Origin: an uncultured Gammaproteobacteria bacterium
GTDB lineage: Bacteria; Patescibacteriota; Microgenomatia; CAYXHB01; CAZYTL01
Assembly: GCA_964650355.1 (NCBI GenBank)
Contig: CAZYTL010000003.1
Coordinates: 65,750-129,749 of the forward strand
Length of the DNA: 64,000 nt
Direction of reading: 5' to 3'
In this document: positions 2,535 to 45,719 of the stretch, piece by piece
Layout: every line of letters starts with the position of its first letter
Numbering within the stretch: position 1 is the stretch's first letter
The notes under the pieces: generated by a model
Database searches by the model: none
What the model was told of the DNA's origin: nothing
What the model saw: only the letters and a program-made list of their open reading frames with translations
Program-made: the position numbers and the translations under genes

Positions 2535-2560
2535 AAGCTATCAGCTATCAGCTAAAAGCT
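2535..2560. repeat. intergenic AAGCTATCAGCTATCAGCTAAAAGCT repeat between the tRNA and the coupling-ATPase gene
   Basis: Seen directly. Confidence 0.7.
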
Positions 2561-2563
2561 AGA

Positions 2564-4891
2564 CTACAGATTGCTTCTCGCCTGCACTTCCTTTTCCACC
2601 TCCGCCAAATCCCGCCCGTACTTCAACCTGCTCAACTCCTTAATCATCTCCCCCACCTTCCGATTTCGCCTCGCATCTTGTGCTGCCATATCTTTCGTAA
2701 TATCCATTGTAAATGGTGGTATCGGCTCATTCTTCACAATCGTTTTCACAAACAAATGATATTTCTCAATATTCATCAAATCCTGCTCATTAAACGTTGG
2801 CTCAAACTGCCTTACCAACACCGGCGCATCATCCGTTCCCACTCGGTAACACATCAACGTTCCCACATTCCCGAAAATCGCTCCTCTGATCTCATCATCC
2901 AACTGCCCCACAAACTGATTCGCCATCACTAAATTCAAATGATACTTCCTTGCCTCAGACAAAATCGTGGCAAAGTCCGGCGTGGCAAAATTCTGAAACT
3001 CATCCACATATAAATAAAAATCCGGTCGTTGATCTTCTGGCACGTCCGTCCGGCTCAAAGCCGCCATCAGAATCCTGGGCACTAACAACAATCCCAAAAA
3101 ATTTGCATTCTCCTCCCCCAACGCTCCCTTATTCAACCTTACAATCAAAATCTTCCTCTCATCCATCGCCTTACGAAAATCAAACGACGACGTTGACTGT
3201 CCGATCACATTCCTCATCATCTTATTCGTAATAAACCGCCCGAACTTACTCACAATATAATCCAAAATCTCCGACTTGTGAAAATCCGCCGTCTGCGCTA
3301 TCTGATCCGTCCAATATCTCCGCACCACCGGATCTTTCACCTTCGGCAGTAACTCCTGCACATACTTGGCATCCGTCTGCGTCCGCACTAATTCAATAAA
3401 CCCTCCTCCCGGCACCGCCTCCATCACCGTCAGCATCGCATTTCGGATTGCGTGCTCAAATCTCGGCCCGATAATCCCTGTCTTATGTGGATCATACAAC
3501 TTATACATCAAATTAATAATCGCCCCCGTAATAAAATGCCTTTGTTGCTCAGTCTTGGCTTCCATCATATTCATCCCCATCGGCCGTTCCGTGTCTCCTG
3601 GATCAAAATAAATCACGTCCTCAGCCCGATGCGGCGGAATAAAATTCAACAAATCCTCTGCCAAATCGTGCGGATCAATCAGCGCCACCCCTTCACCCGC
3701 CTCAATATCCTGTAAAATCAAATCTCGCAAATACTCTGATTTCCCCACACCCGTCTTCCCCACCAAATACATGTGCCTCTGTCTATCCTGCTTGCCCATA
3801 AAAATCGGCCTTTCAATCCCTCGATAAATACTCTTCCCCAAATACAAACCTGAAGTCGCAATATTTGCCGGTGCTGGCGCCCGCTTTGCCATCACCCAGT
3901 GAATATTCGGCGTTTCCACCGTCTTATTTGGAAAATGATAAATCGTAGCCAACTCATCCGTAGCCAAAATCGACTTTTGCGTCAACCAGTGAAAAACCCG
4001 CGGGTACCGATAAATAAAGTCCGTCATGAACGTATGTGGAATCCACACTCTCTGCTGCGTAAACCCGTTCAAATCTGAAGTGAACTGCTCAAACGTACTC
4101 TCAATATTCTTCAAATGCATCTCTGCCACCGTCTCATCCTTAGCGCTCACCACAATCCTCACCGTCACCTCAAATCCCGGCTTCACAATCTTACTTTCAA
4201 TCTGCTCCAGGCTCCTGGCATCCACCTTGTACTTAGCCTTCTCCGGATCCGCCTCTTCCTTCTTCGTGCTCGAAATATAATTCCTACCTCTTTTCCGCCA
4301 CTCATTCCCTGCCGGAGCCAAAATAATCTGAATCGCCGCCGCTTCCCCTTCCTTCATCTTGGCCATTGCCGAAGTCATCGAATTCAGCGGATCAGTAGCC
4401 AGCTCCTTATACGGCTTAATCGGCTTGTACGATTCGTATGACAATCCCAACTGTGCCCACGCCACTGTCCCCTCTTCAAAAAACATATTATACTCGTCCA
4501 CCACCCGCACATCCGCCCCCGGGTACGCCCCGTGAATCTGCTTCTCAATTAAATCCTGCAACTTCCTGGGTGCCGCAATATAAAACCTGATATCTCCCGG
4601 CATTGCCACCAGCTCCAGCGAAATATGCTCTGCCACCTTAGTAGAAAACATCCCCCCTGCCTTTCCCAAAGACTGAAAAGAGCTGATCATCTGCTCCATA
4701 GCGTCAATCTTGATCTCATTATCCTTGGGCACCGCAATCTGCAGCAGCACAAAGTCTAAAGCCCGCACCTCCCGGTCCTTCCATCTCTGCCAGTATAAAT
4801 ACCCGAAAAATCCCCCCGCCATTAGCCCCACAATCACACACATTCCCACCAACAACCCAAACAAAATGAATAACATCCCAATCGCATCCAT
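2564..4891 (-). CDS. VirD4/TraG/TraD-like type IV coupling ATPase (AAA_10 / TraG-D_C type)
   Basis: N-terminal TM helix. Walker A LVGKTGVGKS. Walker B-like YVDEFQNF followed by RKYHLNLVMANQFVGQL...YRVG, which resembles the TraG/VirD4 C-terminal motif. Confidence 0.55.
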   Translation of the reverse strand: MDAIGMLFILFGLLVGMCVIVGLMAGGFFGYLYWQRWKDREVRALDFVLLQIAVPKDNEIKIDAMEQMISSFQSLGKAGGMFSTKVAEHISLELVAMPGDIRFYIAAPRKLQDLIEKQIHGAYPGADVRVVDEYNMFFEEGTVAWAQLGLSYESYKPIKPYKELATDPLNSMTSAMAKMKEGEAAAIQIILAPAGNEWRKRGRNYISSTKKEEADPEKAKYKVDARSLEQIESKIVKPGFEVTVRIVVSAKDETVAEMHLKNIESTFEQFTSDLNGFTQQRVWIPHTFMTDFIYRYPRVFHWLTQKSILATDELATIYHFPNKTVETPNIHWVMAKRAPAPANIATSGLYLGKSIYRGIERPIFMGKQDRQRHMYLVGKTGVGKSEYLRDLILQDIEAGEGVALIDPHDLAEDLLNFIPPHRAEDVIYFDPGDTERPMGMNMMEAKTEQQRHFITGAIINLMYKLYDPHKTGIIGPRFEHAIRNAMLTVMEAVPGGGFIELVRTQTDAKYVQELLPKVKDPVVRRYWTDQIAQTADFHKSEILDYIVSKFGRFITNKMMRNVIGQSTSSFDFRKAMDERKILIVRLNKGALGEENANFLGLLLVPRILMAALSRTDVPEDQRPDFYLYVDEFQNFATPDFATILSEARKYHLNLVMANQFVGQLDDEIRGAIFGNVGTLMCYRVGTDDAPVLVRQFEPTFNEQDLMNIEKYHLFVKTIVKNEPIPPFTMDITKDMAAQDARRNRKVGEMIKELSRLKYGRDLAEVEKEVQARSNL

Positions 4892-5020
4892 AGCCCTAGT
4901 ATATACTACTTTTTTTTCAATTTACGAATAGCTGTACATCCCGTATGCTCCGATGACCATCGGAGCCATCGGGATAAAACATCCCCATTCCGGAGTCAGA
5001 ATCCAGCAGTCTCAACCCTA

Positions 5021-5056
5021 GGACTTCGGTGAGCCCAGTCGAACCGCTGATCAGCC
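5021..5056 (-). repeat. ~38-nt repeat GGCTGATCAGCGGTTCGACTGGGCTCACCGAAGTCC (minus orientation); second copy at 55076-55116
   Basis: About 90% identity between the two copies. Each begins with the GGCTGATC(A/G)GC palindrome core. Confidence 0.65.
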
Positions 5057-5586
5057 TTTGCCCACGGAGCCTGAATCCCTCCTCAAATTTTCCGTTTAAC
5101 CAACATTTCTTCCTGCGCATCCTTTTCCCCAAGTAGAAACTGCTTCAAAACCCGCCATATCGTTACAGGACTTACGCAGTACCACGTCATTCTGGAACGT
5201 AGCGAGAGAATCCCCTTGGAATCGAATTAGCCTCAAGGTGCATAAGTCCTGATCAGTAGTTATAAGTTCGACTTGCAATACTATAGGTTGACTTTACCCC
5301 CAAACCATGCTATACTGCTTCCATACTGTCTCCCCTACTACTCCACAATCGCGTCAGTATAAACCTGATCGCTCCCTTGTAGAGTTTTGTTCGAGACAAT
5401 ATAGCAGCTCTTTTAAATCAACAGAGCCATTCTTTTTGGTTACCTCTTTCTTGAGGCGGAGTTAACTGGATACAAGTTGTTATATCTAGTTAACTCCGCC
5501 TCGCACCAGCGCTCCCGCCCGTGAGTCTGCCCACCAAGTGGGGAGCACCAGACTCTGGGTGATATGAGGATGCGCATCTCATAAAA

Positions 5587-8118: not shown

Positions 8119-8158
8119 TGGATCAGCCTCTGGCTGAAACGAAGCTATAAGCAATAAG
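8119..8158. repeat. intergenic copy: GGATCAGCCTCTGGCTGA + AGCTATAAGCAATAAGCT
   Basis: Same composite arrangement as at 35337, degenerate. Confidence 0.65.
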
Positions 8159-9565
8159 CTACTTCGGATACAACTTTCGCAGATCAGCATCATACTGTTG
8201 CCAATTCTCTTGCCTCAACTGATCAAACTTCGCCCAAATTCTCCGGTACGTATCCTCATACTCCCTCTCCAAATACCCTGCCCCGGACACACTTCCCCTT
8301 TGCTCTCCAATATACAACCTCAACCTATCCATATAGTTCAGTGCCCGTAAATACTGCACATTCACACACTGCCCGTAACCGCTCAAATTATCCAAAATAC
8401 ACCGGTTCACCTGGTCCCATAGCCTGATCGCCTCTGCAGACAGTACCAGCGCCTTTTCCAACTCCTCTCGACTATTCGCGGCGTAATATCGCCCTCCGCC
8501 CGATTGCGCGATCAACTCCAACTGCTGCTTCTCCTCTTCGCTCACTACCAATCCCACCACATTCGTCACCACTTCTATCCCTGACTCATTCAACTGCTCG
8601 GCCACCTGAATCGGGTCCCCTCCGCACGTCTCCTTACCGTCAGACAATAAGATCACAAAATTCTGTGCTGCTTCTTTACCTCTTAATAAACTCCCCGCCA
8701 TCTCCAAGGCCTTGGCAATCCCTGTCCACCCCGCCGGCTTAATCCCCTGTACTAAACTCTCAGTTGCTGGCACATCCACCGGCCCTAGCGGCTGCACCAA
8801 CTCCACCCCTTCGCAAGATGCCTGCTTATCTGCCTCCTCAGAACTTCCTTTATGTCCGTAAACAATCACCCCTACATTGGCAAAACTCGGCAACCCGCTA
8901 TCCAGTAAATCCAACAACGCTTTCTGCGCCGAATCCCACTTTGTCACCCCTTCTAACTTATCCCCCATCGATCCTGAAGCATCTAACAAAAACAACAAAT
9001 TGATTTCCAACCTGGCCCTGGGCACCGTAGGAAAGTCACCACATCCCAACTGTCTCACACAGTCATTGGCATTCGCATCATACCCCAAAATCTCTTCCAG
9101 CCGGTCCGGCAAGGCATCCCCGTCGTTATCTACTCCCAACTCTTCCTTAGTCAGCAACTGCACTTCCTCCCCAGATCCCTCCACCACTGACTCTCCCGTT
9201 GGCTGCGCAGACGGGGTAGCCACCTGCTGTCCCGCTGGCCGCGTCACTTGAGGAGCTGGCAGCAACCTTCCCAACACCACAAATCCTACTCCCAGACCTA
9301 AACTCACCATCAAAATCGAAAACAGCATTGCCTTCGGTCCCTTTGACCTATGCTTTCCTGCCGCCCGCACCGGTGCGCTTACCCCTCCCCCTTGCGACTT
9401 TCCCCTTCCTAGACTGGCCACCTTCGGCAACTCAATCTTCGGCAACCCCTTCTGCCCAATACCTGCTCTTCCACTATCACCCGTATTCCCTGCGCCCTCA
9501 GCAGGGCTTGTTTTCACCCCTGGATCATTCCCTGTTCCCTGTTCTTGTGAATCATTCTCTGCCAT
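8159..9565 (-). CDS. von Willebrand factor type A (VWA) domain membrane protein
   Basis: MIDAS-like LLFLLDASGSMG...ILLSDGKETCGG. N-terminal TM helix after a Gly/Ser-rich leader. Confidence 0.7.
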   Translation of the reverse strand: MAENDSQEQGTGNDPGVKTSPAEGAGNTGDSGRAGIGQKGLPKIELPKVASLGRGKSQGGGVSAPVRAAGKHRSKGPKAMLFSILMVSLGLGVGFVVLGRLLPAPQVTRPAGQQVATPSAQPTGESVVEGSGEEVQLLTKEELGVDNDGDALPDRLEEILGYDANANDCVRQLGCGDFPTVPRARLEINLLFLLDASGSMGDKLEGVTKWDSAQKALLDLLDSGLPSFANVGVIVYGHKGSSEEADKQASCEGVELVQPLGPVDVPATESLVQGIKPAGWTGIAKALEMAGSLLRGKEAAQNFVILLSDGKETCGGDPIQVAEQLNESGIEVVTNVVGLVVSEEEKQQLELIAQSGGGRYYAANSREELEKALVLSAEAIRLWDQVNRCILDNLSGYGQCVNVQYLRALNYMDRLRLYIGEQRGSVSGAGYLEREYEDTYRRIWAKFDQLRQENWQQYDADLRKLYPK

Positions 9566-9631: not shown

Positions 9632-10468
9632 CTAGCCTCCCCCACTCGATTTTGCTCCACTTACATTGGTTGACCATTCCAATACTCTCTCCAATGCCTT
9701 CTCCATCGCCATTTCCCAAAAAGTCACATGCTTCTCTCGTTCCTTATCCAGTAAACCTTTCACCTCTTTTAATGTCATCTCCCATTCCGGGATATAAAAC
9801 ACATGATCGAGTGGCGCTCCCATCACCATTTCCCCTCGTGGTTCCGTCAACATCACTCCCCGCATCCTCCCATCAACATACTCCACCTCTCCCTCTTCTC
9901 CCCTTGTTATCTGCTCCATCTGTCCCTTATCTGTTTCCATCTGCCTGCCCGCCGTAACTTTAGTGTTGGCGGGTGTGCTCTCCTCTTGCTTTGCAGGAGG
10001 AGGAAACAACAATCCCACCACACACCGCCACTCTGCTCCCCGCGCCTCCGGAGGTATCGCCTGCATCCGCTCCAAACAATACTCTACAATCTCCTCATCC
10101 CTCATCACCGTTACCCCGTCCCTCCATCTCCTCATCAGCGCTCCCGGCTCTCGTCCCAAAGCATCAATACTCAAACCTCTCTCTTCCGCCATAATTATAT
10201 AATCGTCATTCCGTAAAGCCGTTGCTTCGTTAGATTGTTCCTCTGTATTTTCCTCTCGCTGTTTTTCGACTCTTAAGCTCTTTAGCCTCACCTCATACAT
10301 TCTGCACCTCACTGCCACATTCGCCTCCAACGTCCTCCCCGTATCCGGCAAATCTATCTCTATCCCCAACTCCTTCGGCATCTCCACCTCCACCTTATAC
10401 TTACCAAACCTCTCCCTTACCTCCAACAACTTCTTCTTATCCTCTGTCACATAGAGAACCTTGACCAT
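9632..10468 (-). CDS. Ham1/RdgB-like non-canonical purine NTP pyrophosphatase paralog with a ~100-aa acidic insertion
   Basis: N-terminus LYVTEDKKKLLEVRERF and C-terminus TEPRGEMVMGAPLDHVFYIPEWEMTLKE...ALERV align with the clear Ham1 gene at 43932..44480. The central insert is low-complexity. Confidence 0.5.
   Translation of the reverse strand: MVKVLYVTEDKKKLLEVRERFGKYKVEVEMPKELGIEIDLPDTGRTLEANVAVRCRMYEVRLKSLRVEKQREENTEEQSNEATALRNDDYIIMAEERGLSIDALGREPGALMRRWRDGVTVMRDEEIVEYCLERMQAIPPEARGAEWRCVVGLLFPPPAKQEESTPANTKVTAGRQMETDKGQMEQITRGEEGEVEYVDGRMRGVMLTEPRGEMVMGAPLDHVFYIPEWEMTLKEVKGLLDKEREKHVTFWEMAMEKALERVLEWSTNVSGAKSSGGG
9986..9998. repeat. palindrome variant CTTGCTTTGCAGG, in-frame in the Ham1-like paralog (PPPAKQEE)
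   Basis: Degenerate copy sharing the GCTTTGCAG core. Confidence 0.55.
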
Positions 10469-10647
10469 TAACTTAATAATAACACTCTATACCTCTGCCC
10501 CAAAGAACATCGGGACCATCCGTGTACAACACCTTAACTCCCCCCACCCAGCCCTGTCCTCAATGCGTCCATTCCATCAGCATCTGCACCGGCACCAAAG
10601 ACCCTATTTGTAAAAACTGCGGTTTCAAAGACCCCTGCTGTGACTGG

Positions 10648-11139
10648 CTATTTTCTTTCTTTTTTATAATTCCCCATCTCCGGTATCACATACCTCACCC
10701 CTCCCCGAGGATCATCCATATCGCCCTCATACCTGGGAATCACATGCCAGTGCAAATGATCCACTGTCCTGCCTGCAGCCCGGCCATCATTCACGCCATG
10801 ATTATAAGCATCCGGCTTAGTATTAATCCTCGGATGTTTCAACGCCTGCGTGCAGAACCAAATTGAATTATCATTAAAAGGATTTTCTAAAAAACGCTTG
10901 TATACTTTCCTTAAGTCCTCACTTAAAATACCCTCAATTACCCTGTCTATTGCATTTTTTAAATCCGTCCATTCCTCTCTCGACAACCCTTTCAAATCAG
11001 GCACATGTCGCACAGGGAAAACTAACGCATGACCTGGAGCCACCGGAAACGGCTCAAATATAGCTATCCATTTATCATCCCGCCAGATAACAATCTCATT
11101 CGGTTTCAAAACACAAAAAGGACAATTCCTTACCATCAT
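10648..11139 (-). CDS. HIT-family (histidine triad) nucleotide hydrolase/transferase
   Basis: HLHWHVIPR histidine triad motif. Confidence 0.8.
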   Translation of the reverse strand: MMVRNCPFCVLKPNEIVIWRDDKWIAIFEPFPVAPGHALVFPVRHVPDLKGLSREEWTDLKNAIDRVIEGILSEDLRKVYKRFLENPFNDNSIWFCTQALKHPRINTKPDAYNHGVNDGRAAGRTVDHLHWHVIPRYEGDMDDPRGGVRYVIPEMGNYKKERK

Positions 11140-11194
11140 GAATCTCTGTTAATATAAACTGACCCCATCATATCACCAATAGTAGACCCAAACC

Positions 11195-11662
11195 ATGAAT
11201 CAAACCCTTCTCCGCATCGCCCAAAAAGGCATCATCTTAAACCAAACCAAAACCAAAATCCTGGTTGTAAAATACTCCACCGCCAAATACACCTCACAAA
11301 AGGTCAAAAACAAACTCGGATTACCAGGCGGGCAAATAGACTTCAGCGAGACCCCTGACGAATCATTTGTCAGAGAAGTAAAAGAAGAAACCGGCATCAC
11401 GATCGTTCCTCTCCTTCCTTTCCATATCTATACTTGGACATACCAAACTGAAACCCACCTAAAACAAATCATCGCCGTCGCCAGGCTCGGAATTTATCAA
11501 TCTGGAAAATTAACTACTCACAAGCAAGAAAGGGAAACCACTATAGAGTTTTCCCAATGGCTACCCATTAAAGAACTTCAACCCAAAGGGTTTATCATTG
11601 ATGAACAGCCCGTCATCACCAAATTCCTTCAATACCAAAAGCAAAATCCCTTCTCTCTTTAA
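11195..11662 (+). CDS. Nudix hydrolase
   Basis: Canonical Nudix box GLPGGQIDFSETPDESFVREVKEETGI. Confidence 0.75.
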   Translation: MNQTLLRIAQKGIILNQTKTKILVVKYSTAKYTSQKVKNKLGLPGGQIDFSETPDESFVREVKEETGITIVPLLPFHIYTWTYQTETHLKQIIAVARLGIYQSGKLTTHKQERETTIEFSQWLPIKELQPKGFIIDEQPVITKFLQYQKQNPFSL

Positions 11663-11683
11663 TCATCCAGCCCACTAATAGCT

Positions 11684-12112: not shown

Positions 12113-12124
12113 AAAACCAGTTTA

Positions 12125-36418: not shown

Positions 36419-38776
36419 ATGCGAGCCTCTCAAAAAACCCTCATCTATCTCCGCCCTCAATCCCCCCTCCGTAAGATTATCTATCTATTCTTATTTAGCA
36501 CTATCATCTCCCTCTTTCTCACCACCGCCCTCTTCCTTTACCAATACCTCTACACCGACCTCCCGGACATCAACCAACTAATCACTGGCCATCAACAACT
36601 GACCACTACCAACATCTACGACCGTCATCATCGTCTCCTCTATCAAATCTACCAGGACCAGAACCGCCTGCCCGTTTCCATCTCAGAACTTCCTCCTTAC
36701 CTCATCCAGGCTCATATCGCCATCGAAGACCAAAACTTCTACCATCACCTCGGCATCAATCCTCCCGACATCCTCCGCGCAGCCTATGTAAATATTTACA
36801 ACTATCTTAACTGTAAACTTTATACTAAAAACTGTAATCTATCTTTACAAGGCGCCTCGACCATCACCCAACAACTCATCAAAAACACCCTCCTTTCCCC
36901 TCAACGCACCCTCAAGCGGAAACTCCAGGAAATCATCCTCGCCCTCCATTTAGAAAGAAAACTCACCAAAGACCAAATTCTCGAAAAATACCTCAACACC
37001 GTCTCCTATGGCGGCACCGCCTACGGTATCGAAGCCGCCGCCCGCAAATACTTTGCCAAACCTGCCTCTCAACTCAATTTAGCCGAGTCCGCCCTCCTGG
37101 CTGGTCTGCCTGCCGCTCCCACCACCTATTCTCCTTACGGTGCCCATCCCGAACTCGCCCTCACCCGTCAACACCAAGTACTCCAACGCATGTATGAAGA
37201 CGGCTATATTACTGAAAATCAAAAACAGACAGCCATCAGCTATCAACTGACTTACGCCGCTCCTGATAAACAAATCAAAGCCCCGCATTTCGTCATGTAC
37301 GTCCGCAAACAACTTGAAGAGCAATTCGGACCCCAATACCTCACCCAAAACAGCCTCGACATCACCACCTCACTCGATCTCGACCTTCAGGAACTCACCC
37401 AAAACATTCTTCAATCAGAAATCTCGAATCTTAAATCTTTACACGTCACCAACGGCGCCGTTCTCATCACCCAACCCGCCACCGGAGACATCTTAGCCAT
37501 GGTCGGCTCTGTCAACTATTTCGACACCCAACACCAGGGCAACTACAATGCCACCACTGCCCCTCGGCAACCCGGATCCTCTATCAAACCCGTCAACTAC
37601 GCCGCCGCCCTCAGTCTAAATTTAACTGACAACTTAACTCCACAGTACACTGCAGCAAGCCTCATTGATGACTCTCCTGTCACCCTCACCTTTCCTGATC
37701 AGCCTCCCTACACCCCTACTAACTACGATGGCCAATATCATGGTTTGGTCACCCTCCGCACCGCTCTCGCTTCCTCTTTCAACATCCCGGCCGTCAAAGT
37801 GCTTCACAGTTACGGTGTAGAAAAAATGTTCTCCCTTGGCCAACAACTCGGCATCACTACCTGGACCGATCCCCACCGCTACGGCCCCTCTCTCACTTTG
37901 GGCGGAGGAGAAGTGCGCATGACTGACATGGCCGTCGTCTACGGTACCTTCGCCAACCTCGGCTATCGGATAGACCTTAACCCTATCACTGCCATCAACG
38001 ATGCTAATGGCCAAAATTACCTACCCCAAATCCCCAATAACCAAAATTCGACATTTCCACATCACGATGCTCTCGTCCTCGATCCCCGGGTTGCTTTCCT
38101 CATCAATCATATCCTTTCTGATAACCAGGCCCGCATTCCTGGATTCGGTCGTTACTCACTCCTCAACATCAAAGACCACATCGCGGCAGTCAAAACCGGT
38201 ACTTCAGACAACCTCCGGGATAACTGGGCCATCGGTTACACTCCCGACTACCTAGTAGCTGTTTGGGTCGGCAACTTTGACAACTCTCCCATGGATCACA
38301 TCGCCTCCGGCATTACCGGCGCCACCCCCATCTGGCACCAACTCATGACCTATCTCCTCGATGAATACAACACCACCTCTTCTCATGAAACAGAGAGGTT
38401 GTCTGGAGTCACAGAAAATACCGACAATTCTTCTTCTAATGAAGCTAAAATCGATTTTCCCTGGCCGCCGCCAGCAGGCCTCACCCAAGTCTCCATCTGT
38501 CCTCTCACCAATACCCTTTCCTGCCAAGACTGCCCCAACACCCAGGAATGGTTTATTGACGGCACTCAACCTACCGGAACCTGCACCGGCGTCCCCCCTT
38601 CTCCTTCACCCACCATTCCACCGTCACCGCCTACTCCACCGATCACTGCTTCACCGACCACGTATCCTTTCTTTATCCGCACGACCCCTCCCCCTTTAAA
38701 CCCCTACCTCCTCTATCAGCAACGCGATACCTACCTCCAGCAACTCATCGAGGATCTCAAGCGCCAAACACCCTAA
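36419..38776 (+). CDS. bifunctional penicillin-binding protein 1A-like paralog (GT51 + transpeptidase)
   Basis: IAIEDQNFYHHLG, GASTITQQLIKN, SSIKP, SFN and KTGT. C-terminal Pro-rich tail. Confidence 0.85.
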   Translation: MRASQKTLIYLRPQSPLRKIIYLFLFSTIISLFLTTALFLYQYLYTDLPDINQLITGHQQLTTTNIYDRHHRLLYQIYQDQNRLPVSISELPPYLIQAHIAIEDQNFYHHLGINPPDILRAAYVNIYNYLNCKLYTKNCNLSLQGASTITQQLIKNTLLSPQRTLKRKLQEIILALHLERKLTKDQILEKYLNTVSYGGTAYGIEAAARKYFAKPASQLNLAESALLAGLPAAPTTYSPYGAHPELALTRQHQVLQRMYEDGYITENQKQTAISYQLTYAAPDKQIKAPHFVMYVRKQLEEQFGPQYLTQNSLDITTSLDLDLQELTQNILQSEISNLKSLHVTNGAVLITQPATGDILAMVGSVNYFDTQHQGNYNATTAPRQPGSSIKPVNYAAALSLNLTDNLTPQYTAASLIDDSPVTLTFPDQPPYTPTNYDGQYHGLVTLRTALASSFNIPAVKVLHSYGVEKMFSLGQQLGITTWTDPHRYGPSLTLGGGEVRMTDMAVVYGTFANLGYRIDLNPITAINDANGQNYLPQIPNNQNSTFPHHDALVLDPRVAFLINHILSDNQARIPGFGRYSLLNIKDHIAAVKTGTSDNLRDNWAIGYTPDYLVAVWVGNFDNSPMDHIASGITGATPIWHQLMTYLLDEYNTTSSHETERLSGVTENTDNSSSNEAKIDFPWPPPAGLTQVSICPLTNTLSCQDCPNTQEWFIDGTQPTGTCTGVPPSPSPTIPPSPPTPPITASPTTYPFFIRTTPPPLNPYLLYQQRDTYLQQLIEDLKRQTP
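37240..37261. repeat. CAGCCATCAGCTATCAACTGAC, in-frame in the PBP1A-like paralog 2 (TAISYQLTY)
   Basis: Seen directly. Confidence 0.6.
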
Positions 38777-38779: not shown

Positions 38780-39394
38780 CTATAACTCAAGTGATTTCTC
38801 AACAAATTCACATAACTGTCCTCCAATCAACCTCTGCCAAAACCCCACCTTCTCTTCATCACTTATTTCCGAAAAGTATTTCCCCCTCCTCAAATCAATT
38901 TGTAAAGACTCAATCGGGTAACCATGCTTCAAAGCTTTACTCGGTTTCCATACCAACTTTCTTGGTTCCTTAAAACTACTCTCAAACACTTGTCCATTTA
39001 CAGTTGCCAAACACACGGCATATTGCCAATAACCTTCAGCTTCCCCTCCTAATCCCCTGATCACTCCGGAAAAATGAGCCAATAATTCCTCATCTGACAT
39101 TTCTCTCTTCCCAAAAAATCTTCTTACATATATTCCGGGTTGTAAATCATCCACCAAACCCTCAATATACAGCCCGATATCAACCGCTAACACGGCCTCA
39201 CCTAACTTACTAGCATAACCTAATGCCTTTAACCGTGCATTCTCAACTTCATTCTTACCAGATTCCTCAACTTCAAAATCGTTTATCGCTCCAAAATCAG
39301 CTAAGTTCCTTAACTCAATATCCAAAGAACTCAACGCATCCTTTATCTGCTTAAACTTAGCCTTATTCCTAGTCGCAATCACCAACTGCTTCAT
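38780..39394 (-). CDS. Ham1/Maf-like nucleoside-triphosphate pyrophosphatase paralog
   Basis: VIATRNKAKFKQIK ... ENARLKA ... LAVDIGL...PGIY resemble ITPase-family motifs. The start at MKQLV is preferred over the track's 39436. Confidence 0.5.
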   Translation of the reverse strand: MKQLVIATRNKAKFKQIKDALSSLDIELRNLADFGAINDFEVEESGKNEVENARLKALGYASKLGEAVLAVDIGLYIEGLVDDLQPGIYVRRFFGKREMSDEELLAHFSGVIRGLGGEAEGYWQYAVCLATVNGQVFESSFKEPRKLVWKPSKALKHGYPIESLQIDLRRGKYFSEISDEEKVGFWQRLIGGQLCEFVEKSLEL

Positions 39395-39545
39395 AACCAA
39401 AATATACACCAGAGTACCACGGCCATGAAGTTCCAAATAATTAGAAACATTCTATCCCATTCTTCCACCCCGTCAACTGAAAAATTTTTTAGCTATTCTC
39501 CCACTTCAGAAACATCAACTCTTATAAACAAACACCCACTCTATC

Positions 39546-40304
39546 TCACTCAACCGTCTCTTTCACTTGCTCTCCTTGTTTAGACACTTCCAGCCATTTA
39601 CCCCTCATTTTAACCGTCCCAGCAGCAAAATCCACAACCTCCGGCGCCCGAGTCTTTACATCATCCACTAAACTCTCCAGCTTCTCGGCATCCACCCCTT
39701 GACGCTCCCGATAGCTTTCACGTCTCAGCGGCACAGGAGCTCCTGGTTTTACCTCTTCAGGTACTATATGACTAGAATGCGGATATGAAAAAGCCACAAA
39801 ATCTAAATCCCCGGGTCTGTTGGCATCCAAAGCAATCCTTCCTATTCCCCCTTCATTCCCCGCACTGGGTACATACAGCGTCATTCCAACTTGCTGGTCA
39901 TTTCTCGAAACATCAATTCTTTCTGGATACATAGTTCTTATTCTTTTTAGGACCAATCCCCGCTTTTCAACTCGGTAAGGAACCGTCGCATACCAAGAAA
40001 AATTAACCCCATCCCTTTCCACTTGTCTTCGTAAACTTACGTCTCTCGCAATTCTAGATCTTTCTACTATCCAGGTACCTGTCTCATCCGTTATCCTTCT
40101 CATTTCACCCGGCTCCATGTTTTTTATCAATTGTTCTCCAATCCCATGTATAACTTCTATCGTCTCAGCGCACGTTTCCAAAGTTAATCCTTCCACCACA
40201 ATTACTTGGTTTCCAGTAGTTCTATCCTTAGAGGCTTCACCACCATTGTGAGAAACACCCCCATCTTCATCTTGCACCTGGGTAGGAAGCCCTTCCTCTA
40301 ACAT
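39546..40304 (-). CDS. hypothetical protein
   Basis: 252-aa ORF with no confident motif. Confidence 0.35.
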   Translation of the reverse strand: MLEEGLPTQVQDEDGGVSHNGGEASKDRTTGNQVIVVEGLTLETCAETIEVIHGIGEQLIKNMEPGEMRRITDETGTWIVERSRIARDVSLRRQVERDGVNFSWYATVPYRVEKRGLVLKRIRTMYPERIDVSRNDQQVGMTLYVPSAGNEGGIGRIALDANRPGDLDFVAFSYPHSSHIVPEEVKPGAPVPLRRESYRERQGVDAEKLESLVDDVKTRAPEVVDFAAGTVKMRGKWLEVSKQGEQVKETVE

Positions 40305-40358
40305 AAATCAATTATACCAAAATCCTCTCATCTGTTACGCCTTTTTTCAAAAAGTCCT

Positions 40359-41441
40359 TTAGTCTTTAATCTCGCTCTGCCATTTCCACACCGTCCTACT
40401 GATCTCCGGCACCGCTTCCTTCGCCTCTATCTCATTAACATTCTCAGTCATCACTACCAATAAATAAGGTTGCGGAGCATACACAATCCCTGCATCTCCC
40501 ACCACTCCGACTTCTGTTCCCACCTTATGCGCCACTTTAATATCATCAGGCACTCCGGCAGGAATCCGATCCTCATACCACGTCTTTATCATCGAATCCA
40601 ATATTTGTTCACTATCATCTTTATTTACCCATCTATATGCATACAATCCTTCGAATAAATCCACAATTTCTTTCGGCGTTACCTGATTATCTTTAATCGA
40701 CACTTGCCATAAACCCATCTTCGTAAACTCCCCTGCCAACCTCTCTTCTCCCACCAAATTTACCATCGCTTGGAAAGCTGTATTGTCTGATTCGTTCCCC
40801 ATGTGCCACAACAACTTTCTCCACGTCACTTCATACCCCACCGGCTTGCCTACCAGACTCCCGCTCCCTCCTACTCGATCCGCCTCTCTTAATTTATATA
40901 CATCTTCCAAATCTACCTCTCCCCTTTCTGCCATCCTGTACACTGCTACAATCACGGGCACCTTAATCAAACTCGCTGCTTGCATCGGCTCATTCATAAA
41001 ATTCTGCTTTGCAGAAAAATCTCCTTCCGGCCCCACCTCAAATTCCCAATTCCCCCTACTCTTACATTCTGAATTCTGCATTTTTACACTGAGCGAAGTC
41101 GAAGTGCTGCATTCTAAATTCTTGCTATATACCACATACCTCCCTCGCAACCCCTCCACCATCCCCCGAATCTGCCCCTCTACTTCTGAAGTGTCGATGA
41201 TTACTTCATCTTTGATATCCGTCCGCCGACTGGCGGATTGATTTTTGACTTCTTCCCTCTCCCACACCATTGGTTTGGGCTGCCAAACATCCTTCACCCC
41301 CTCCTTTAATTTCCCTTGCCACCAAAACCCTACCGTCACCAAAGTCATCACCAAAAACACCCCCGCCACCACCCATCTATTCTTCCTCTTCTTCTCCTGC
41401 CATTCCCGAATGGTTTCCTGTTTCACCTTCTTCTTTACCAT
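40359..41441 (-). CDS. class A beta-lactamase-like / penicillin-binding serine hydrolase, membrane-anchored
   Basis: SxxK (ASLIKV), SDN (ESDNTA) and KxG (HKVGTE) motifs. N-terminal TM helix. Confidence 0.6.
   Translation of the reverse strand: MVKKKVKQETIREWQEKKRKNRWVVAGVFLVMTLVTVGFWWQGKLKEGVKDVWQPKPMVWEREEVKNQSASRRTDIKDEVIIDTSEVEGQIRGMVEGLRGRYVVYSKNLECSTSTSLSVKMQNSECKSRGNWEFEVGPEGDFSAKQNFMNEPMQAASLIKVPVIVAVYRMAERGEVDLEDVYKLREADRVGGSGSLVGKPVGYEVTWRKLLWHMGNESDNTAFQAMVNLVGEERLAGEFTKMGLWQVSIKDNQVTPKEIVDLFEGLYAYRWVNKDDSEQILDSMIKTWYEDRIPAGVPDDIKVAHKVGTEVGVVGDAGIVYAPQPYLLVVMTENVNEIEAKEAVPEISRTVWKWQSEIKD
41001..41016. repeat. ATTCTGCTTTGCAGAA palindrome, in-frame in the beta-lactamase-like gene (DFSAKQNF)
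   Basis: Exact copy. Confidence 0.8.
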
Positions 41442-41565
41442 TCCCTATATTCTAACCCAAGGCCTTACAAAACGCTAAAAACCAAATTATTTCATCCTTA
41501 CCATTTTGCATTTTGCTTGCCCCGTAGTCCTCTGCACTACTGGGGATCTTTGATTTTTGATTTAA

Positions 41566-42198
41566 TTATGTCATAAACGCTTTCTCCTTACACACCCGAC
41601 AATGCGTATGGTCCAACCTCCCCATCTGCTTCTCAAACTTCTCAATCGCTTCCATAATTTCCTCCTTAGAGTCAACAATCTCAAACAACTTCACCGATTC
41701 TTTTCTGATCCGCATATTCTTTACTAACACCTTTGTAATCGCCTTCCAAAAATCTCCGTACAACACAAACCCTTTGTGATGCCCTCTATACAACTTCGCT
41801 AACACCCAGGCAGTAGAAAACTCAGACAAAGTCCCCGTTCCTCCGTTAAACACCACATAAAAATCCGCGTGCTCCAACAACTTAAACATCCTCTCAATAT
41901 AATTACCCGTCTTAATTTCCACATCCGGGATATTTCCCACATACCGACCTTCAAACCCGGGCGCGTCCTTAGGATCAAACGTCACCGTCAGTGTCTCGCC
42001 TCCCCCGGCCTCCGCCCCTTTTGTCGAAGCATCCATCACTCCAGGCCCACCGCCGTTAATAATCGTATACCCCTTTTGAGCCAAAAACTTAGCCGCTTCA
42101 TAGGCCGAATCATACAACTCCTCCCCCGGGTCCGTATCCGAAAACCCGAAAAAGGCAATATTCTTCACCAACCTAGGTATCACCAACTTCCTTTTCTC
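41566..42198 (-). CDS. LOG-family (TIGR00730) Rossmann-fold nucleotide-binding protein
   Basis: GGGPGVMDA and PGGTGTLSEF motifs. Start moved to MEKRKL to remove the overlap with the upstream gene; the track ORF extends to 42288. Confidence 0.7.
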   Translation of the reverse strand, partial: EKRKLVIPRLVKNIAFFGFSDTDPGEELYDSAYEAAKFLAQKGYTIINGGGPGVMDASTKGAEAGGGETLTVTFDPKDAPGFEGRYVGNIPDVEIKTGNYIERMFKLLEHADFYVVFNGGTGTLSEFSTAWVLAKLYRGHHKGFVLYGDFWKAITKVLVKNMRIRKESVKLFEIVDSKEEIMEAIEKFEKQMGRLDHTHCRVCKEKAFMT

Positions 42199-42220
42199 CA
42201 TATCCCCTACTTTACCATAT

Positions 42221-42904
42221 TTAGCCCGCCAATTGCGCATATAAATTTCGCAGATTCTCCCCAAAATCTCCCGACCCAAACAACCCACTATTCACCTCTG
42301 CCATATCTACACCCAAATCTCTCAACATATTTACATTCTCCAGCTTTACCCCCCCATCAACCTCTATCTGAAAATTCACTGACAACTGATCTCTGACAAC
42401 TGACAACTGTTTTACCTTCTCCAATAGCTCATTCTTCATCTTCCGCCCCGAAAACCCCGCCTCAATCGTCATCACCTGCACCACATCCAAATCCCTCCCC
42501 ACCTCCTCCTTTATCGCTAATATCGGCGTTTGCGCATCGATTGACAACCCACATTCCAAACCCCACTCGCCTTTCACTAAACTCACCCACGAGACCTGAT
42601 CCTTAACCACCTCCACCTGCGGCATTATCCGATCAAACCCCACCCCATAACAGCCCTTCATCCACTCCTGTAAATTATCCTCGTCCACCATCAAATGTGC
42701 CTCAAACTTCAACCCTAATCCCTTATTCTTAATTCCCAATTCAATATCTCTGGGCCTTAACGTCTTATTATTAGCATAGATTCCGTCAATAAAATCCACT
42801 TGTACCCACTCAATCAACCCCTGGCTGGCCCCTTTTCGGACCAACTCCACCCTCTGTTCAAAAATCTTTATATCATCAGTCAAAATCCCGGGAACAATCT
42901 GCAT
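42221..42904 (-). CDS. ribulose-phosphate 3-epimerase-like (Rpe family, divergent)
   Basis: TIM-barrel-like pattern with HLMV and QVMTIEAGFSGRK (~ VMSVNPGFGGQ). Confidence 0.5.
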   Translation of the reverse strand: MQIVPGILTDDIKIFEQRVELVRKGASQGLIEWVQVDFIDGIYANNKTLRPRDIELGIKNKGLGLKFEAHLMVDEDNLQEWMKGCYGVGFDRIMPQVEVVKDQVSWVSLVKGEWGLECGLSIDAQTPILAIKEEVGRDLDVVQVMTIEAGFSGRKMKNELLEKVKQLSVVRDQLSVNFQIEVDGGVKLENVNMLRDLGVDMAEVNSGLFGSGDFGENLRNLYAQLAG

Positions 42905-42950
42905 AACCCCATTGAAACATAAACATAAATTAATTTCACCTTCCCCTGCT

Positions 42951-43415
42951 CTAATGTTTTCTTGTTGTCATGAATCTGTATCCTAAAACCACCACCAACC
43001 CATACCCCACCAACTTCAAACTCATATAAATCGCCTCTATTACCGCTCTTAAACTTCCGGTTCCGTCACCATACCCATTCCCTTTTAACAACGTCATCAA
43101 CTCCTCATCTCCTCCTCTCCCCGATGCCCACCACACGGTTACCATCCATCCCAGCCACACCAATATTACCACGTACACCCACAATCCATACTTGGCAATC
43201 AATTCCTTCACCTCCTTAATCTTCCGAATCTCTTCAGAGTAATTGATCATATAAACCAGCCCTAATCCCAATCCCAATAACTCAAACAACCACCCCCAGT
43301 TCTTTACCCACCACCTCATTCCAATCAAACCTCCCAATACAGTTAAACCCAAACCGAGCACCAATCCCCAACTAATACCTAACTTCAACAATCGCCAATT
43401 CACCAACCGCATCAT
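42951..43415 (-). CDS. hypothetical membrane protein
   Basis: Multiple TM helices, W/G-rich. Confidence 0.35.
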   Translation of the reverse strand: MMRLVNWRLLKLGISWGLVLGLGLTVLGGLIGMRWWVKNWGWLFELLGLGLGLVYMINYSEEIRKIKEVKELIAKYGLWVYVVILVWLGWMVTVWWASGRGGDEELMTLLKGNGYGDGTGSLRAVIEAIYMSLKLVGYGLVVVLGYRFMTTRKH

Positions 43416-43479
43416 CTCTCATTAAACCATAAAACCATTACAACATAAAAGCACTAGAACAACCTATCAATATAACTAC

Positions 43480-43935
43480 TTACTTCTCTATGTTACTAAT
43501 CTTCTCCAACCTCCTCTTATGCCTCTCTTCCCCGCTAAACTCCGTCTCCAAAAACGCTTTCACCATTTCCTTTGCCTGCTGAGCGTCTACATAATCCACC
43601 GCCAAAGCCAGCACATTAATGTCATCATCTCTCCTTGCCGCCCCTACCTGCTCCTCATTCAAACCCAACCCACACCGCACCCCCTTAAACTTATTGGCCA
43701 CCACACATACCCCTACCCCGCTCCCGCAAATCACAATCCCACAACTTTTCATTTCCCGCTCTTCGAGCTTCATTACTTGCTGCCCAACCAGCACAGCAAA
43801 ATCCACATAATCATCCTCCTCATCCAACTCTTCAGCCCCGCAATCCACCACTTCATAATCCATGCCCATCAACCACCCTTTCAAGAATTCCTTTAACTTA
43901 AACCCCCGGTGATCAACCCCAATAAAAACTTTCAT
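43480..43935 (-). CDS. rpiB: ribose-5-phosphate isomerase B (RpiB/LacAB family)
   Basis: KVFIGVDHRGF...GIVICGSGVGVCVVANK...DDINVLAL match RpiB motifs. Confidence 0.8.
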   Translation of the reverse strand: MKVFIGVDHRGFKLKEFLKGWLMGMDYEVVDCGAEELDEEDDYVDFAVLVGQQVMKLEEREMKSCGIVICGSGVGVCVVANKFKGVRCGLGLNEEQVGAARRDDDINVLALAVDYVDAQQAKEMVKAFLETEFSGEERHKRRLEKISNIEK

Positions 43936-44480
43936 ACTCCTAGTTTATCACGTAACCTTTCCAATGCTCTCCTTCTCATCGAAACCTGATTCTTCTCCTC
44001 CATCCCCATCTCCGCAAACGTCTTGTCAAAACCCTCAGGAATAAAAATCGGGTCCCACCCAAACGCATACTCTCCTCTTGGTTCTTTTGCAATCATTCCT
44101 TTAACCTCCCCCTCAAACAACCGCACTTGCTCTCCATCATGATATCCTATTACCACCACAGCCCTCGCCCTGCGATCCTTTTCGTTTTCCATCATCCTAC
44201 AAATCCCTTCACACCCTACAGCTTCCAAAAACCAATGAATTAACGCCCCAGGCAATCCGTTCCACGCCTCAAAATACAACTGATTATCTTCCACCATCAA
44301 GGGCCGCTTCAGCTTCTTATAAGCTTGTTCAACTTTATACCTTACTACAGTTCTTCCATCAATCGCCTGAATCTCATCCAAATTCAAATCTCTTCCCTCA
44401 ACCTTAAAACCGCTCCCCAAAATCTCCCTTGCTTCTCGCAGCTTATTCTTGTTCCCAGTCACAAACAAAATCTTCTTCAT
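43932..44480 (-). CDS. Ham1/RdgB dITP/XTP pyrophosphatase
   Basis: ILFVTGNKNKLREAREIL, EAWNGLPGAL and AFGWDPIF. Confidence 0.8.
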   Translation of the reverse strand: MKKILFVTGNKNKLREAREILGSGFKVEGRDLNLDEIQAIDGRTVVRYKVEQAYKKLKRPLMVEDNQLYFEAWNGLPGALIHWFLEAVGCEGICRMMENEKDRRARAVVVIGYHDGEQVRLFEGEVKGMIAKEPRGEYAFGWDPIFIPEGFDKTFAEMGMEEKNQVSMRRRALERLRDKLGV

Positions 44481-44845
44481 ATGGAAATAAACAAATCAAA
44501 AAAAACAAACACCACCAACATCAACACCGATTTTAATATATCAATCAATAACCTGGATTCAGTATCCTTTAGCTGGCCTAAAAATCTCCACATCGGCCAG
44601 ATCCAAATTAACAAACTTACCGCCGAATCCATCAGCAACCAAAACAACCAGGGATTGTCGTAGTAAAAAAACTGTTCTCCCGGTTTAAATTCATCTGCCA
44701 GTCTGCGGCCAATATCATTATAAACCATGTCATTCATCATCCAAATCACCACAAAATTCAAGCCATAAACCCAAAACACCAACCCTGGCATCGTCAATTC
44801 TTCCTTTTTAGCAATCCTTGCCGCATCAACCACTACGGCCTTCAA
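44477..44845 (-). CDS. hypothetical membrane protein
   Basis: 122 aa with 2-3 TM helices. Start codon overlaps the Ham1 gene by 4 nt. Confidence 0.35.
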   Translation of the reverse strand: MKAVVVDAARIAKKEELTMPGLVFWVYGLNFVVIWMMNDMVYNDIGRRLADEFKPGEQFFYYDNPWLFWLLMDSAVSLLIWIWPMWRFLGQLKDTESRLLIDILKSVLMLVVFVFFDLFISI

Positions 44846-45014
44846 CCACTAATTACTTAACGGCATCGTTAAGTGAGATCTGCTTAGTGCTACTAAAAAC
44901 TTACCTACACTTCCTTCCGTGTGAATTGCCAAACCCCAAAACACCACCCAACCAATTCCAAACAAACCAGTCAGTAAATAATCAGTAATCCTCAACTGCC
45001 ACCACCTTTTCATA

Positions 45015-45695
45015 TTAGGTCATTGAGTTATATCCCTTCACCAACTCCCTCAACTCTCCTTCCGGATCATCAGCCTTCATCACATCCGAAGCGATCAAAA
45101 ACCCATACGCTCCCAGCTCTAAACCAATCTTAATATCCTCTACTGAATGCACGCCTGCCCCGATCAACAACCTTTCGCCCCCCACAATCTCTACCACCTC
45201 CTGTACCACTTCCGGCTTCGACGAGGCCACCGATTTATCCCGACTCCCAATCAACTCCGGCGGTTCATAAGCCACATAATCAGGATCAAACTTCAACACT
45301 TTCTTCACCTCTTCTGGATCAGCCCCACAAATCAACGTTTTGAATCCTACATCTCTGGCTCTATTCATCGCCTTCTCAATATCCTCCATAATCAACTTCC
45401 TCTCCGAATGATTCAACATCACCCCCACTGCCCCGTTCGCCTTCACCGCCTCCGGCAGCACCCATCCCGTATGCGCCCCATACTCAATCCCGTCCACATG
45501 CTGACACCACACCGGCACCAACACTTCCCTGGCAATCCGCAACACATCAGACACCTGCACCACCACCGCCATCTCAATCCCGGTTTCCCGGCTCACCCGT
45601 TCCACAATCTGTGCCATCCGCAACCCCTCCTCCCCTGTCCCTGACTGATAAGTTTTAAAATTTACGAATATCATAAGCGATCCTAATCTCAGCAA
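45015..45695 (-). CDS. tpiA: triose-phosphate isomerase, archaeal-type short form
   Basis: FVNFKTY, GAHTG, LNHSERK and YEPPELIG motifs. About 225 aa. Confidence 0.75.
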   Translation of the reverse strand: MLRLGSLMIFVNFKTYQSGTGEEGLRMAQIVERVSRETGIEMAVVVQVSDVLRIAREVLVPVWCQHVDGIEYGAHTGWVLPEAVKANGAVGVMLNHSERKLIMEDIEKAMNRARDVGFKTLICGADPEEVKKVLKFDPDYVAYEPPELIGSRDKSVASSKPEVVQEVVEIVGGERLLIGAGVHSVEDIKIGLELGAYGFLIASDVMKADDPEGELRELVKGYNSMT

Positions 45696-45697
45696 AG

Positions 45698-45719
45698 GGT
45701 GATCAGCCTTTGGCTGATA
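45698..45719. repeat. intergenic copy: GGTGATCAGCCTTTGGCTGATA
   Basis: Palindromic TGATCAGCC...GGCTGATA. Confidence 0.65.

Follow-up and report, generated by a model that had tools for sequence, protein, structure and literature searches.

Is the short palindrome that recurs across a 64-kb stretch of contig CAZYTL010000003.1 (positions 1-64000, hereafter the window), often in the company of AGCTATC-type heptamers, the core of one composite repeat family, as the initial annotation proposed, or do distinct kinds of repeat meet in this genome of the Candidate Phyla Radiation (CPR) type? Analysis of the window, of its syntenic relatives and of similar loci in other genomes suggests, at what we would call an even chance, that two independent micro-repeat classes overlap here, namely slippage-driven heptamers and very small, dispersed, non-autonomous hairpin elements. 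The hairpin part appears to be an undescribed and widespread variant of small palindromic dispersed repeats.

The recurring palindromic unit of the window is a 15-nt hairpin, TCAGCC-N3-GGCTGA, with exact copies at 8123, 35328, 35343, 45703 and 55067 and a related unit TCCGCCTTTGGCGGA at 2436; its geometry is that of a 6-bp stem TC-NN-CC/GG-NN-GA closed by a 3-nt loop. Because this is the unit that recurs, the palindrome GGCTGATCAGCC, formerly taken for the repeat unit itself, is better understood as the junction ...GGCTGA/TCAGCC... of two tandem 15-nt units. Of the five sites once listed for it, that at 35337 is exact and those at 5045 and 45697 carry one mismatch (three matches versus 0.07 expected in the window), while those near 8119 and 55076 are more distant variants. 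A search for the generic unit (TC-NN-CC / N3 / GG-NN-GA with a complementary stem) recovered 6 exact matches at 5 loci, as against a mean of 0.045 and a maximum of 1 in dinucleotide-preserving shuffles, which also supply the expectations given below for the period-7 arrays and for AGCTATCAGCT (n=200 for the hairpin unit, n=30 for the period-7 arrays). A covariance model (R1) of the doublet of two such units recovered 5 loci in the window at E<0.01, whereas the syntenic relatives, of which 59 kb was searched, gave none at E<1. Four of the five window loci are extragenic and one is genic, and the 30-mer doublet as a whole is a near-perfect palindrome centred on GATC. The copies in the window are as follows:

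2417-2459, no strand assigned, intergenic: a single unit TCCGCCTTTGGCGGA (2436-2450) inside an 8-bp outer stem (2417-2424 / 2452-2459), 40 nt upstream of the minus-strand tRNA-Ile(TAT) gene at 2324-2396; DNA fold -14.2 kcal/mol, z -2.8; 20.3 bits with R1.
5019-5062, minus strand: a decayed composite copy with a degenerate unit followed by a 28-nt element, GGTTCGACTGGGCTCACCG..AAGTCC; the inverted partner of 55067-55123.
8123-8160, no strand assigned, intergenic: the unit TCAGCCTCTGGCTGA (8123-8137) followed by AAGCTAT AAGCAAT AAGCTAC, 22 nt past the stop codon of a VWA-domain gene (8159-9565, minus strand).
35328-35357, plus strand, within a glycoside hydrolase family 18 (GH18) gene: the doublet TCAGCCAAAGGCTGA TCAGCCTCTGGCTGA, a 30-nt insertion encoding QPKADQPLAD, which forms a single extended hairpin; DNA fold -10.9 kcal/mol, z -4.6; 57.8 bits with R1.
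45689-45717, no strand assigned: a doublet with a decayed unit 1 (one deletion, one mismatch), upstream of the likely ATG of triose-phosphate isomerase and bracketed by an 8-nt direct repeat ATCCTAAT (45680-45687 and 45736-45743).
55067-55123, plus strand, intergenic: a composite of the unit TCAGCCAATGGCTGA and a unit 2 (TCGGC...CCGA) split by the 28-nt element GGTTCGACTGAGCTCACCGTCGAAGTC (55087-55113), bracketed by an 8-nt direct repeat AACAATTT (55059-55066 and 55124-55131).

The copy in the GH18 gene bears most directly on how such hairpins reach coding sequence. An exact look-up of the GH18 protein matched no record. The segment QPKADQPLAD is absent from 18 of 18 aligned homologues, a set that includes syntenic orthologues and in which the best homologue is 55-63% identical, and its flanks (xQL on one side, NNYQL on the other) run on uninterrupted in the orthologues, while the catalytic DxxDxDxE region and the invariant catalytic columns are intact. 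Since 18 homologues lack the segment and the flanking residues are continuous, the GH18 doublet is, as judged from this alignment, a clean in-frame insertion specific to this genome's lineage. The proposal that a dispersed palindromic element lies both between genes and in frame within a gene is thus borne out by this copy, as is, for its behaviour, the comparison drawn with the palindromic elements of Rickettsia, in that a copy sits in frame in a gene that remains intact. A further window-specific insertion of ~16 aa (QNSQLSFPYSIPARNA...) was observed at aa 330-380 of the same protein (window 35700-35860), beside an (AAATACT)x3 array.

The heptamers present a different picture. Arrays of period 7, called with Tandem Repeats Finder after removal of overlaps, number 21 in the window versus 2.07 expected (maximum 5 in the shuffles), whereas periods 8-10 are in excess by 2- to 3.5-fold only. 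The string AGCTATCAGCT is matched at one mismatch or fewer 12 times versus 0.63 expected (at 2536, 34869-34893, 35362-35393 and 37231-37248); a lone one-mismatch match (AGCTATAAGCT) lies at 19771-19781 on the minus strand, with a stray further match at 50073. As a genome-wide period-7 class in their own right, the heptamers speak against the earlier idea of hairpin and AGCTATC repeat as one composite element. Heptamers within 5-25 nt of the palindrome are indeed found at 35343 and 8123, while the sites at 45703, 5046 and 55067 are flanked instead by other short repeats (ATCCTAAT, AACAATTT and ATCAAAA); likewise the stand-alone heptamers at 2536, 34869-34893 and 37231-37248 hold, while that placed at 19764-19796 comes down to the single minus-strand match AGCTATAAGCT. 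The two classes nevertheless adjoin more often than expected: three of the five hairpin loci have a period-7 array no more than 100 nt away, against an expected ~7.5%, and arrays adjoin the units at 2436, 8123, 35343 and 55067. The following arrays are pertinent here:

2531-2561, plus strand, intergenic: an AGCTATC array of 2.7 perfect copies with degenerate flanking units.
19762-19795, minus strand, ribonucleotide reductase 1 (RNR1): AGCTAAG-type units (sense) encoding QLRAKSYKLKAN.
20333-20365, minus strand, RNR1: (AGCAAAA)n giving the 10-aa in-frame insertion KKAKSKKQRS.
22681-22711, minus strand, ribonucleotide reductase 2 (RNR2): a perfect (AGCAAAA)x4.4 within an insertion.
34869-34902, plus strand, N-terminal linker of GH18: an AGCTAAC / AGCTATC array encoding LANSYQLSANNY.
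35362-35397, plus strand, GH18: AACTATC AGCTATC AGCCAAC AGCTATC AACTAAG encoding NYQLSANSYQLS.
37231-37258, plus strand, paralogue 2 (PBP2) of the penicillin-binding protein (PBP) PBP1A: AGCCATC AGCTATC AACTGAC encoding TAISYQLTYA.

Units other than AGCTATC include AGCAAAA, ACTGACA, AATTACT/AATTACC, ATTCTGA and ACCTTGA. TCAGCTA is common to five dispersed loci of the window and AGCAAAA to two non-homologous sites of the two RNR genes. Several units are one base removed from TAACTGA, e.g. TCAGCTA (TAGCTGA on the opposite strand), CAACTGA, present at 42378, and TAACTGA/TTACTGA, present at 25413. Likely genes contain about 14 of the 25 arrays, and every genic array is in the stop-free sense. The TAACTGA heptamer is known from Beggiatoaceae, cyanobacteria and Bacteroidetes, where arrays in open reading frames (ORFs) are found only in the stop-free sense and encode SVISYQL-type peptides (MacGregor 2015, PMC4679880). 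On sequence grounds the window heptamers belong to this known TAACTGA class of short tandemly repeated repetitive (STRR) sequences, and the NSYQLSA peptides of the window are the same as its SVISYQL-type peptides: as in the described cases (PMC4679880; Mrazek 2007 for long simple sequence repeats), the window arrays are head-to-tail repeats of 7 nt, stop-free in ORFs, encode SxxSYQL-type peptides when read in reverse orientation and differ by 7-nt indel steps. They depart from that class in host, which is CPR-like and not a cyanobacterium, Beggiatoa or member of the Bacteroidetes, in location, with the genic arrays (essential genes such as those for RNR, PBP and GH18 included) contrasting with the predominantly intergenic placement of the known repeats, and in that orthologous arrays hold their length and change their unit sequence.

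This last point emerges from contigs of the GH18 homologues (L121-L126), which are syntenic with positions 19-45 kb of the window (RNR, RNR, PBP, GH18, PBP, a beta-lactamase-like gene and further genes). At the second GH18 site L121 has (AACTATC/AACTAAC)x5 encoding NNYQLTTNNYQLS, and L122 and L123 are likewise 7-nt periodic; at the first site L121 has (GACAACT)x4 and L122 AGC-type heptamers at the same place. The TAISYQLTYA segment of PBP2 aligns without gaps to orthologue and paralogues, and the L123 orthologue has (AAAACTC)x4 there (9017-9044). The array at 19762-19795 of RNR1 is equal in length to its L125 counterpart, itself 7-nt periodic. Length is thus kept and unit sequence changed in PBP2 versus L123, RNR1 versus L125 and GH18 34869-34902 versus positions 180-225 of the L121 gene. 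Consequently, of the claim that in-frame peptides had been added at both GH18 sites and in PBP2, the reading frame holds and the net insertion does so only for the hairpin doublet, and the NYQLSAN segments, when aligned with orthologues, do not behave as recent insertions, with the GH18 sites periodic in L121-L123 and PBP2 showing no length difference. True in-frame insertions relative to orthologues were recovered elsewhere, namely the 10-aa KKAKSKKQRS at aa405 of RNR1, which orthologues lack, the NYQLLTTDY array of PBP1 and the array in the aa553 region of RNR2, which lies in an insertion lacking from the L125 and L123 orthologues. L123 has 9 period-7 arrays in 14 kb and L125 none in 17.8 kb, which indicates that heptamer richness is a sub-lineage trait.

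That either class merely reflects chance or the codon and oligonucleotide bias of a C-rich, G-poor strand is an explanation to which we attach practically no weight. The composition is indeed extreme (plus strand 33% C, 14% G), and the dinucleotide-preserving shuffles, which retain that composition, refute it for the hairpin (0.045 versus 6), the arrays (2.07 versus 21) and AGCTATCAGCT (0.63 versus 12).

The hairpin doublet is widely distributed. One genome per species was scanned with the 17-mer GATCAGCCTYTGGCTGA, giving at least 124 matches where ~140 would be expected by chance for any 17-mer in that collection, and a second hairpin unit lies directly upstream in 81 of the 124 matches listed, where the chance rate per site is ~0.5%; the doublet statistics below rest on these 81, with the remaining 43 chance-type matches for comparison. 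Alignment of the doublet loci gives the consensus tt-TCCGCC-ARA-GGCGGA-TCAGCC-TYT-GGCTGA-aa, with conservation ending at ~34 nt. The hosts span more than 10 phyla, including many classes of Patescibacteria, Ignavibacteria, Bacteroidota, Chlorobi, Gammaproteobacteria, Bdellovibrionota, Omnitrophica, Elusimicrobia, Chloroflexota, Kiritimatiellae and Eisenbacteria; some genomes are matched on two or three contigs and some loci have 3-5 units. Stem positions 3 and 4 covary (CG/CG, AG/CT, GT/AC and GG/CC, i.e. 5' arms TCCGCC, TCAGCC, TCGTCC and TCGGCC), with 27 double changes at stem pair 3 and 14 at stem pair 4 among 80 copies and 98% of cells paired versus 91% in shuffles, figures that carry a bias, since possession of a hairpin was the criterion by which copies were chosen. 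An adapter or assembly artefact was considered and rejected in view of the intact gene with an in-frame copy, the diverse flanks, the many assemblers and the presence of the doublet in one isolate genome (Marivirga, L008). Viral contigs yielded true doublets in 2 of 12 matches to the 17-mer, and plasmids of cultured bacteria only chance-level matches. A search of Rfam at gathering thresholds, covering the window and 33 loci, found no family at any element, the only hits being to tRNA, tmRNA, RNase P and rRNA. The literature, searched by sequence string and topic, returned no description of the hairpins and only the TAACTGA heptamer paper and citations to the small dispersed repeats discussed below.

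As in the window, most of these doublets are extragenic: 16 of the 81 fall in frames that run for 150 aa or more without a stop, as against 28 of the 43 chance-type matches, so that ~80% of loci elsewhere are extragenic. On either strand two of the three reading frames are free of stops, xP(K/E)AD xPLA(D/E) being the reading of one of these, and other CPR genomes have in-frame copies in the same frame as in GH18 within low-complexity linkers (PQPEADRPLDD in L010, SQPEADRPLDE in L090). Given lengths of 15 or 30 nt and two open frames out of three, copies can persist in frame in permissive protein loops. The gene end closest to the doublet is a 3' end at 24 loci and a 5' end at 23, spacers of convergent and of divergent type are equally represented (9 versus 9), and the T-run before the doublet and A-run after it are the reverse of an intrinsic terminator, all of which argues that the doublet is neither terminator- nor promoter-like.

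What the insertion sites do share is repetitiveness and secondary structure. Direct repeats of at least 8 nt between the two flanks occur in 24% of loci versus 2.8% of controls, and of at least 10 nt in 13% versus 0.4%, so that the doublet is set within short repeats, tandem or direct and often heptameric (L037, L079, L081, L119). Copies are also nested in the loop side of other copies (L084, L096, L117), and doublets lie at the break points of truncated tRNA gene copies that adjoin an intact tRNA gene:

L071, 4180-4300: break in the T-loop.
L036, 400-450: break in the T-loop.
L041, 4010-4090: break in the anticodon loop.
L055, 6085-6146: break in the anticodon loop.
L060, 2850-2930: break in the D-loop.
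L097, 2986-3045: break in the D-loop.

Of 30 loci checked, 11 have a tRNA or tmRNA gene no more than ~300 nt away, and in L015 hairpin units flank a tmRNA gene on both sides. GGTTCGA-like strings and the neighbouring tRNA fragments led us to consider a tRNA intron or a tRNA-derived origin, which was rejected: the tRNAs called by ARAGORN are all intact neighbours, and the copies that are interrupted are truncated pseudogenes. An outer stem formed by the flanks, which would give a T-shaped or three-way junction and is present at some loci including 2417-2459 of the window, was similarly rejected as a general feature (inverted flank complementarity of at least 8 nt in 7% versus 2.9% of controls).

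The nesting leads to a further element. The inverted repeat formed by 5027-5060 and 55072-55105 contains GGTTCGACTG(A/G)GCTCACCG(TC)GAAGTCC, a 28-nt hairpin nested in two window copies (5027-5045 on the minus strand, 55087-55113 on the plus strand). A metagenome scan with a 21-mer recovered the hairpin, GGTTCGACTGRGCTCACCG(TC)GAAGTCC, at no fewer than 120 loci (L139-L258) of groundwater and sediment metagenomes, of which few should be chance matches by a rough estimate of the size of the collection. In L141, L144, L153 and L188 it lies inside unit 2 of a doublet, exactly as at 55067-55123 of the window, and elsewhere at the apex of unrelated hairpins or of other GC-rich mini-palindromes. It has no Rfam family, a literature search by sequence gave no paper on it, it is absent from plasmids of cultured bacteria, and viral contigs gave only 2 matches; with the 2 of 12 true doublets noted above, this indicates that the hairpin elements are not mainly phage-borne. 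The DNA around the 28-nt hairpins is rich in CCCTGAGC..GTCGAAGGG-type palindromes.

A second hairpin family of 15 nt was also detected in the window:

23254-23268, minus strand: TTCTGCTTTGCAGAA (TTCTGC-TTT-GCAGAA), with other copies at 41002-41016, 45922-45936 and 47959-47973.
13017-13031: a compensated variant, TCCTGCTTTGCAGGA.

The four copies of TTCTGCTTTGCAGAA are identical and always read (S/P)AKQ in minus-strand genes (SAKQN). In the beta-lactamase-like gene the copy lies within a 10-aa insertion relative to L123 and L125, and in RNR2 in a segment common to L123 and lacking in L125.

These observations allow a mechanism to be proposed for each class. Heptamer arrays would arise and turn over by replication slippage; those in genes would survive only in the stop-free orientation and at in-frame lengths, and, in loops and linkers that tolerate this, would insert short xYQLxxx or K-rich peptides or write them over existing residues. 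The doublet appears to be mobile or copied but non-autonomous, with an enzyme not encoded nearby acting on it in trans, and to enter at or beside short tandem repeats and at the apex of hairpins, be these its own copies, the related 28-nt element or the loops of tRNA genes. Transfer could proceed through a single-stranded DNA hairpin or an RNA intermediate, and the copies would presumably be neutral. We infer mobility from the lineage-specific presence of copies, their dispersal in unrelated contexts, their nesting and their precise 30-nt boundaries. In its boldest form this proposal holds the 15-nt units, 30-nt doublets and 28-nt GGTTCGAC..GTCGAAGTC hairpin to be cosmopolitan, horizontally spreading, ultra-small mobile elements of uncultivated bacteria, smaller than any established transposable element, which insert into hairpin apices and short tandem repeats and occasionally remodel proteins in frame; we regard this only as a tentative possibility, with somewhat more to be said against it than for it. 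Insertion into the apex of other hairpins would account for both the nesting and the broken tRNA genes.

The architecture invites comparison with known small repeats. SDR1-8 among the small dispersed repeats (SDRs) of the Nostocaceae, treated by Elhai et al. in 2008, are reportedly compensated hairpins of tens of nt, often embedded in tandem heptamers, self-nested and without an enzyme of their own. All four features reported for SDRs, i.e. a hairpin with compensatory changes, embedding in repeats, self-nesting and the lack of an encoded enzyme, are seen in the doublet. Unlike SDRs, which are reported as confined to Nostocaceae (PMC5861425), the doublet is present in over 10 phyla outside the cyanobacteria, and no cyanobacterial record among the matches listed has it; it also differs in its doubled 15-nt unit and in-frame occurrence in proteins, and the likeness is one of behaviour. 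As its hosts are not cyanobacteria, the doublet is at best an SDR analogue. Rickettsia palindromic elements (RPEs), the subject of Ogata et al. in 2000, are palindromic selfish DNAs of 100-150 bp which are known only from Rickettsia, in frame in genes as well as between them. The doublet resembles them in being palindromic, in its in-frame presence in a gene left intact (GH18) and in its intergenic copies. It falls outside the class by size and host, the units being 15-30 nt long (57 nt in the composite copy), the hosts cosmopolitan and unrelated, and only one of five window loci genic.

Several considerations weigh against a mobile origin. Transposition intermediates, pairs of empty and filled sites in close strains and a mobilising enzyme are all lacking from the material analysed. 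A transposase of RAYT type (REP-associated tyrosine transposase, after the repetitive extragenic palindromic or REP sequences), for which the initial annotation suggested a search elsewhere in the genome, is not in evidence here: no transposase, be it RAYT-like, Y1 or other, is encoded in the window, and clustering of the ORFs within 8 kb of 77 loci revealed no recurring family that might represent a linked gene (largest cluster 7 loci). The direct repeats at the flanks vary in length and are hence not a classical target-site duplication. In SufS, TTCTGCTTTGCAGAA aligns residue by residue with native sequence, so that simple insertion is no explanation there. Further, some of the taxonomic labels may be binning errors, as nearly all cross-phylum matches come from metagenome-assembled genomes, and the selection bias in the compensatory changes has been mentioned. 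Finally, selfish DNA of the REP kind is not usually conserved over more than 10 phyla, as these 30 nt are, and such conservation could point to a conserved binding partner or function.

This last consideration is the root of the principal rival, in which the doublet is a functional cis-element, either a hairpin serving RNA processing or stability or a palindromic site bound by a protein, with a conserved partner in each case, acting near stable-RNA genes and in untranslated regions, with the genic copies being accidental. We consider it rather unlikely; it stays the main rival by virtue of the cross-phylum conservation of 30-34 nt of sequence and the proximity to tRNA and tmRNA genes, to which belong the 11 of 30 loci, the window unit at 2436 located 40 nt from tRNA-Ile and the units on both sides of the tmRNA gene in L015, and the computed fold of the hairpin is stable. 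It is weakened, however, by the even distribution over 5' and 3' gene ends and over convergent and divergent spacers, by the nested copies and in-frame copies in proteins, and by the complete lack of the element from the 59 kb of syntenic relatives searched with R1; the T- and A-runs opposite in order to those of an intrinsic terminator, the copies in broken tRNA genes and the lack of an Rfam match likewise do not favour it.

A REP/REPIN-type system, in which a RAYT (Y1/HUH) transposase with its gene at another place in the genome copies extragenic palindromes, would explain short, GC-rich, mostly extragenic palindromes that are dispersed in many copies within genomes and whose doublets fold into one longer hairpin. 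REPs are normally species-specific (see PMC3116915). The same doublet sequence is found in many phyla, its copies are self-nested, its consensus has no conserved 5' GTAG-type tetranucleotide, and its units, each itself palindromic, abut directly and are not spaced as inverted REPs. With both the GTAG head and species specificity thus wanting, and no Y1 transposase in the window or recurring near copies, we judge membership of the REP/RAYT class to be improbable. It might alternatively be that nothing is mobile, and that template switching or slippage in place (quasi-palindrome correction) under extreme strand-biased mutation generates the palindromes, with the likeness between loci arising by convergence. 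Sequence changes without change of length in PBP2, at aa595 of RNR1 and in SufS, the orthologous arrays with different units and the extreme GC skew of the genome all accord with such an origin. Yet local template switching yields perfect palindromes and not the same sequence at different loci, whereas unrelated genomes of unexceptional composition, from many phyla, have 15- to 30-mers as well as a 21-mer of the 28-nt element in identical form, and four identical copies of a 16-mer occur in the window itself; accordingly there is little to commend this explanation.

The surroundings of the repeats have some unusual features of their own. The GC skew of the window is ~-0.25 to -0.64 in every 2-kb bin, independent of gene orientation; at codon position 3 plus-strand genes have ~50% C and 8% G and minus-strand genes the reverse, and L121-L126 have the skew too (-0.25 to -0.45). 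The stretches 9632-19064 and 38780-44480 are dense in nucleotide-pool and deamination genes, with three Ham1-like, three dCTP-deaminase-like and two NUDIX genes along with genes for HIT, thymidylate synthase, dihydrofolate reductase, dCMP deaminase and two class-II-like RNRs; this density may be connected to the extreme skew. At 292-4891 a tyrosine recombinase (292-1260), a NUDIX gene (1564-2094, with a match exactly at the Pfam cutoff), tRNA-Ile(TAT) and a TraG/VirD4-like coupling protein (2564-4891) occur together, which may mark the edge of an integrated conjugative element; the hairpin and heptamers of 2417-2561 are situated between the tRNA and the coupling-protein gene. A local G-rich island in the G-poor strand at 26300-27300 comprises 21-24-nt tandem repeats (GGCGTCGGCGGCACTCGAGTG and similar) and long overlapping ORFs on both strands, none with a Pfam match.

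Returning to the proposed overlap of two repeat classes, the hairpin units, if truly mobile, would be among the smallest mobile DNA known, and the SDR phenomenon, described only for Nostocaceae, would reach many phyla, among them CPR bacteria, whose ~1-Mb genomes are regarded as poor in selfish DNA. They would then provide a specific way for short peptides to be introduced into loops of conserved enzymes such as GH18, ribonucleotide reductase and the beta-lactamase-like protein, and could account for many contig breaks and spurious small ORFs in metagenomes. The heptamer arrays show that DNA prone to slippage is tolerated within essential genes even though the genome is reduced, and their orthologous versions with differing units provide a tractable case of repeat turnover under length constraint.

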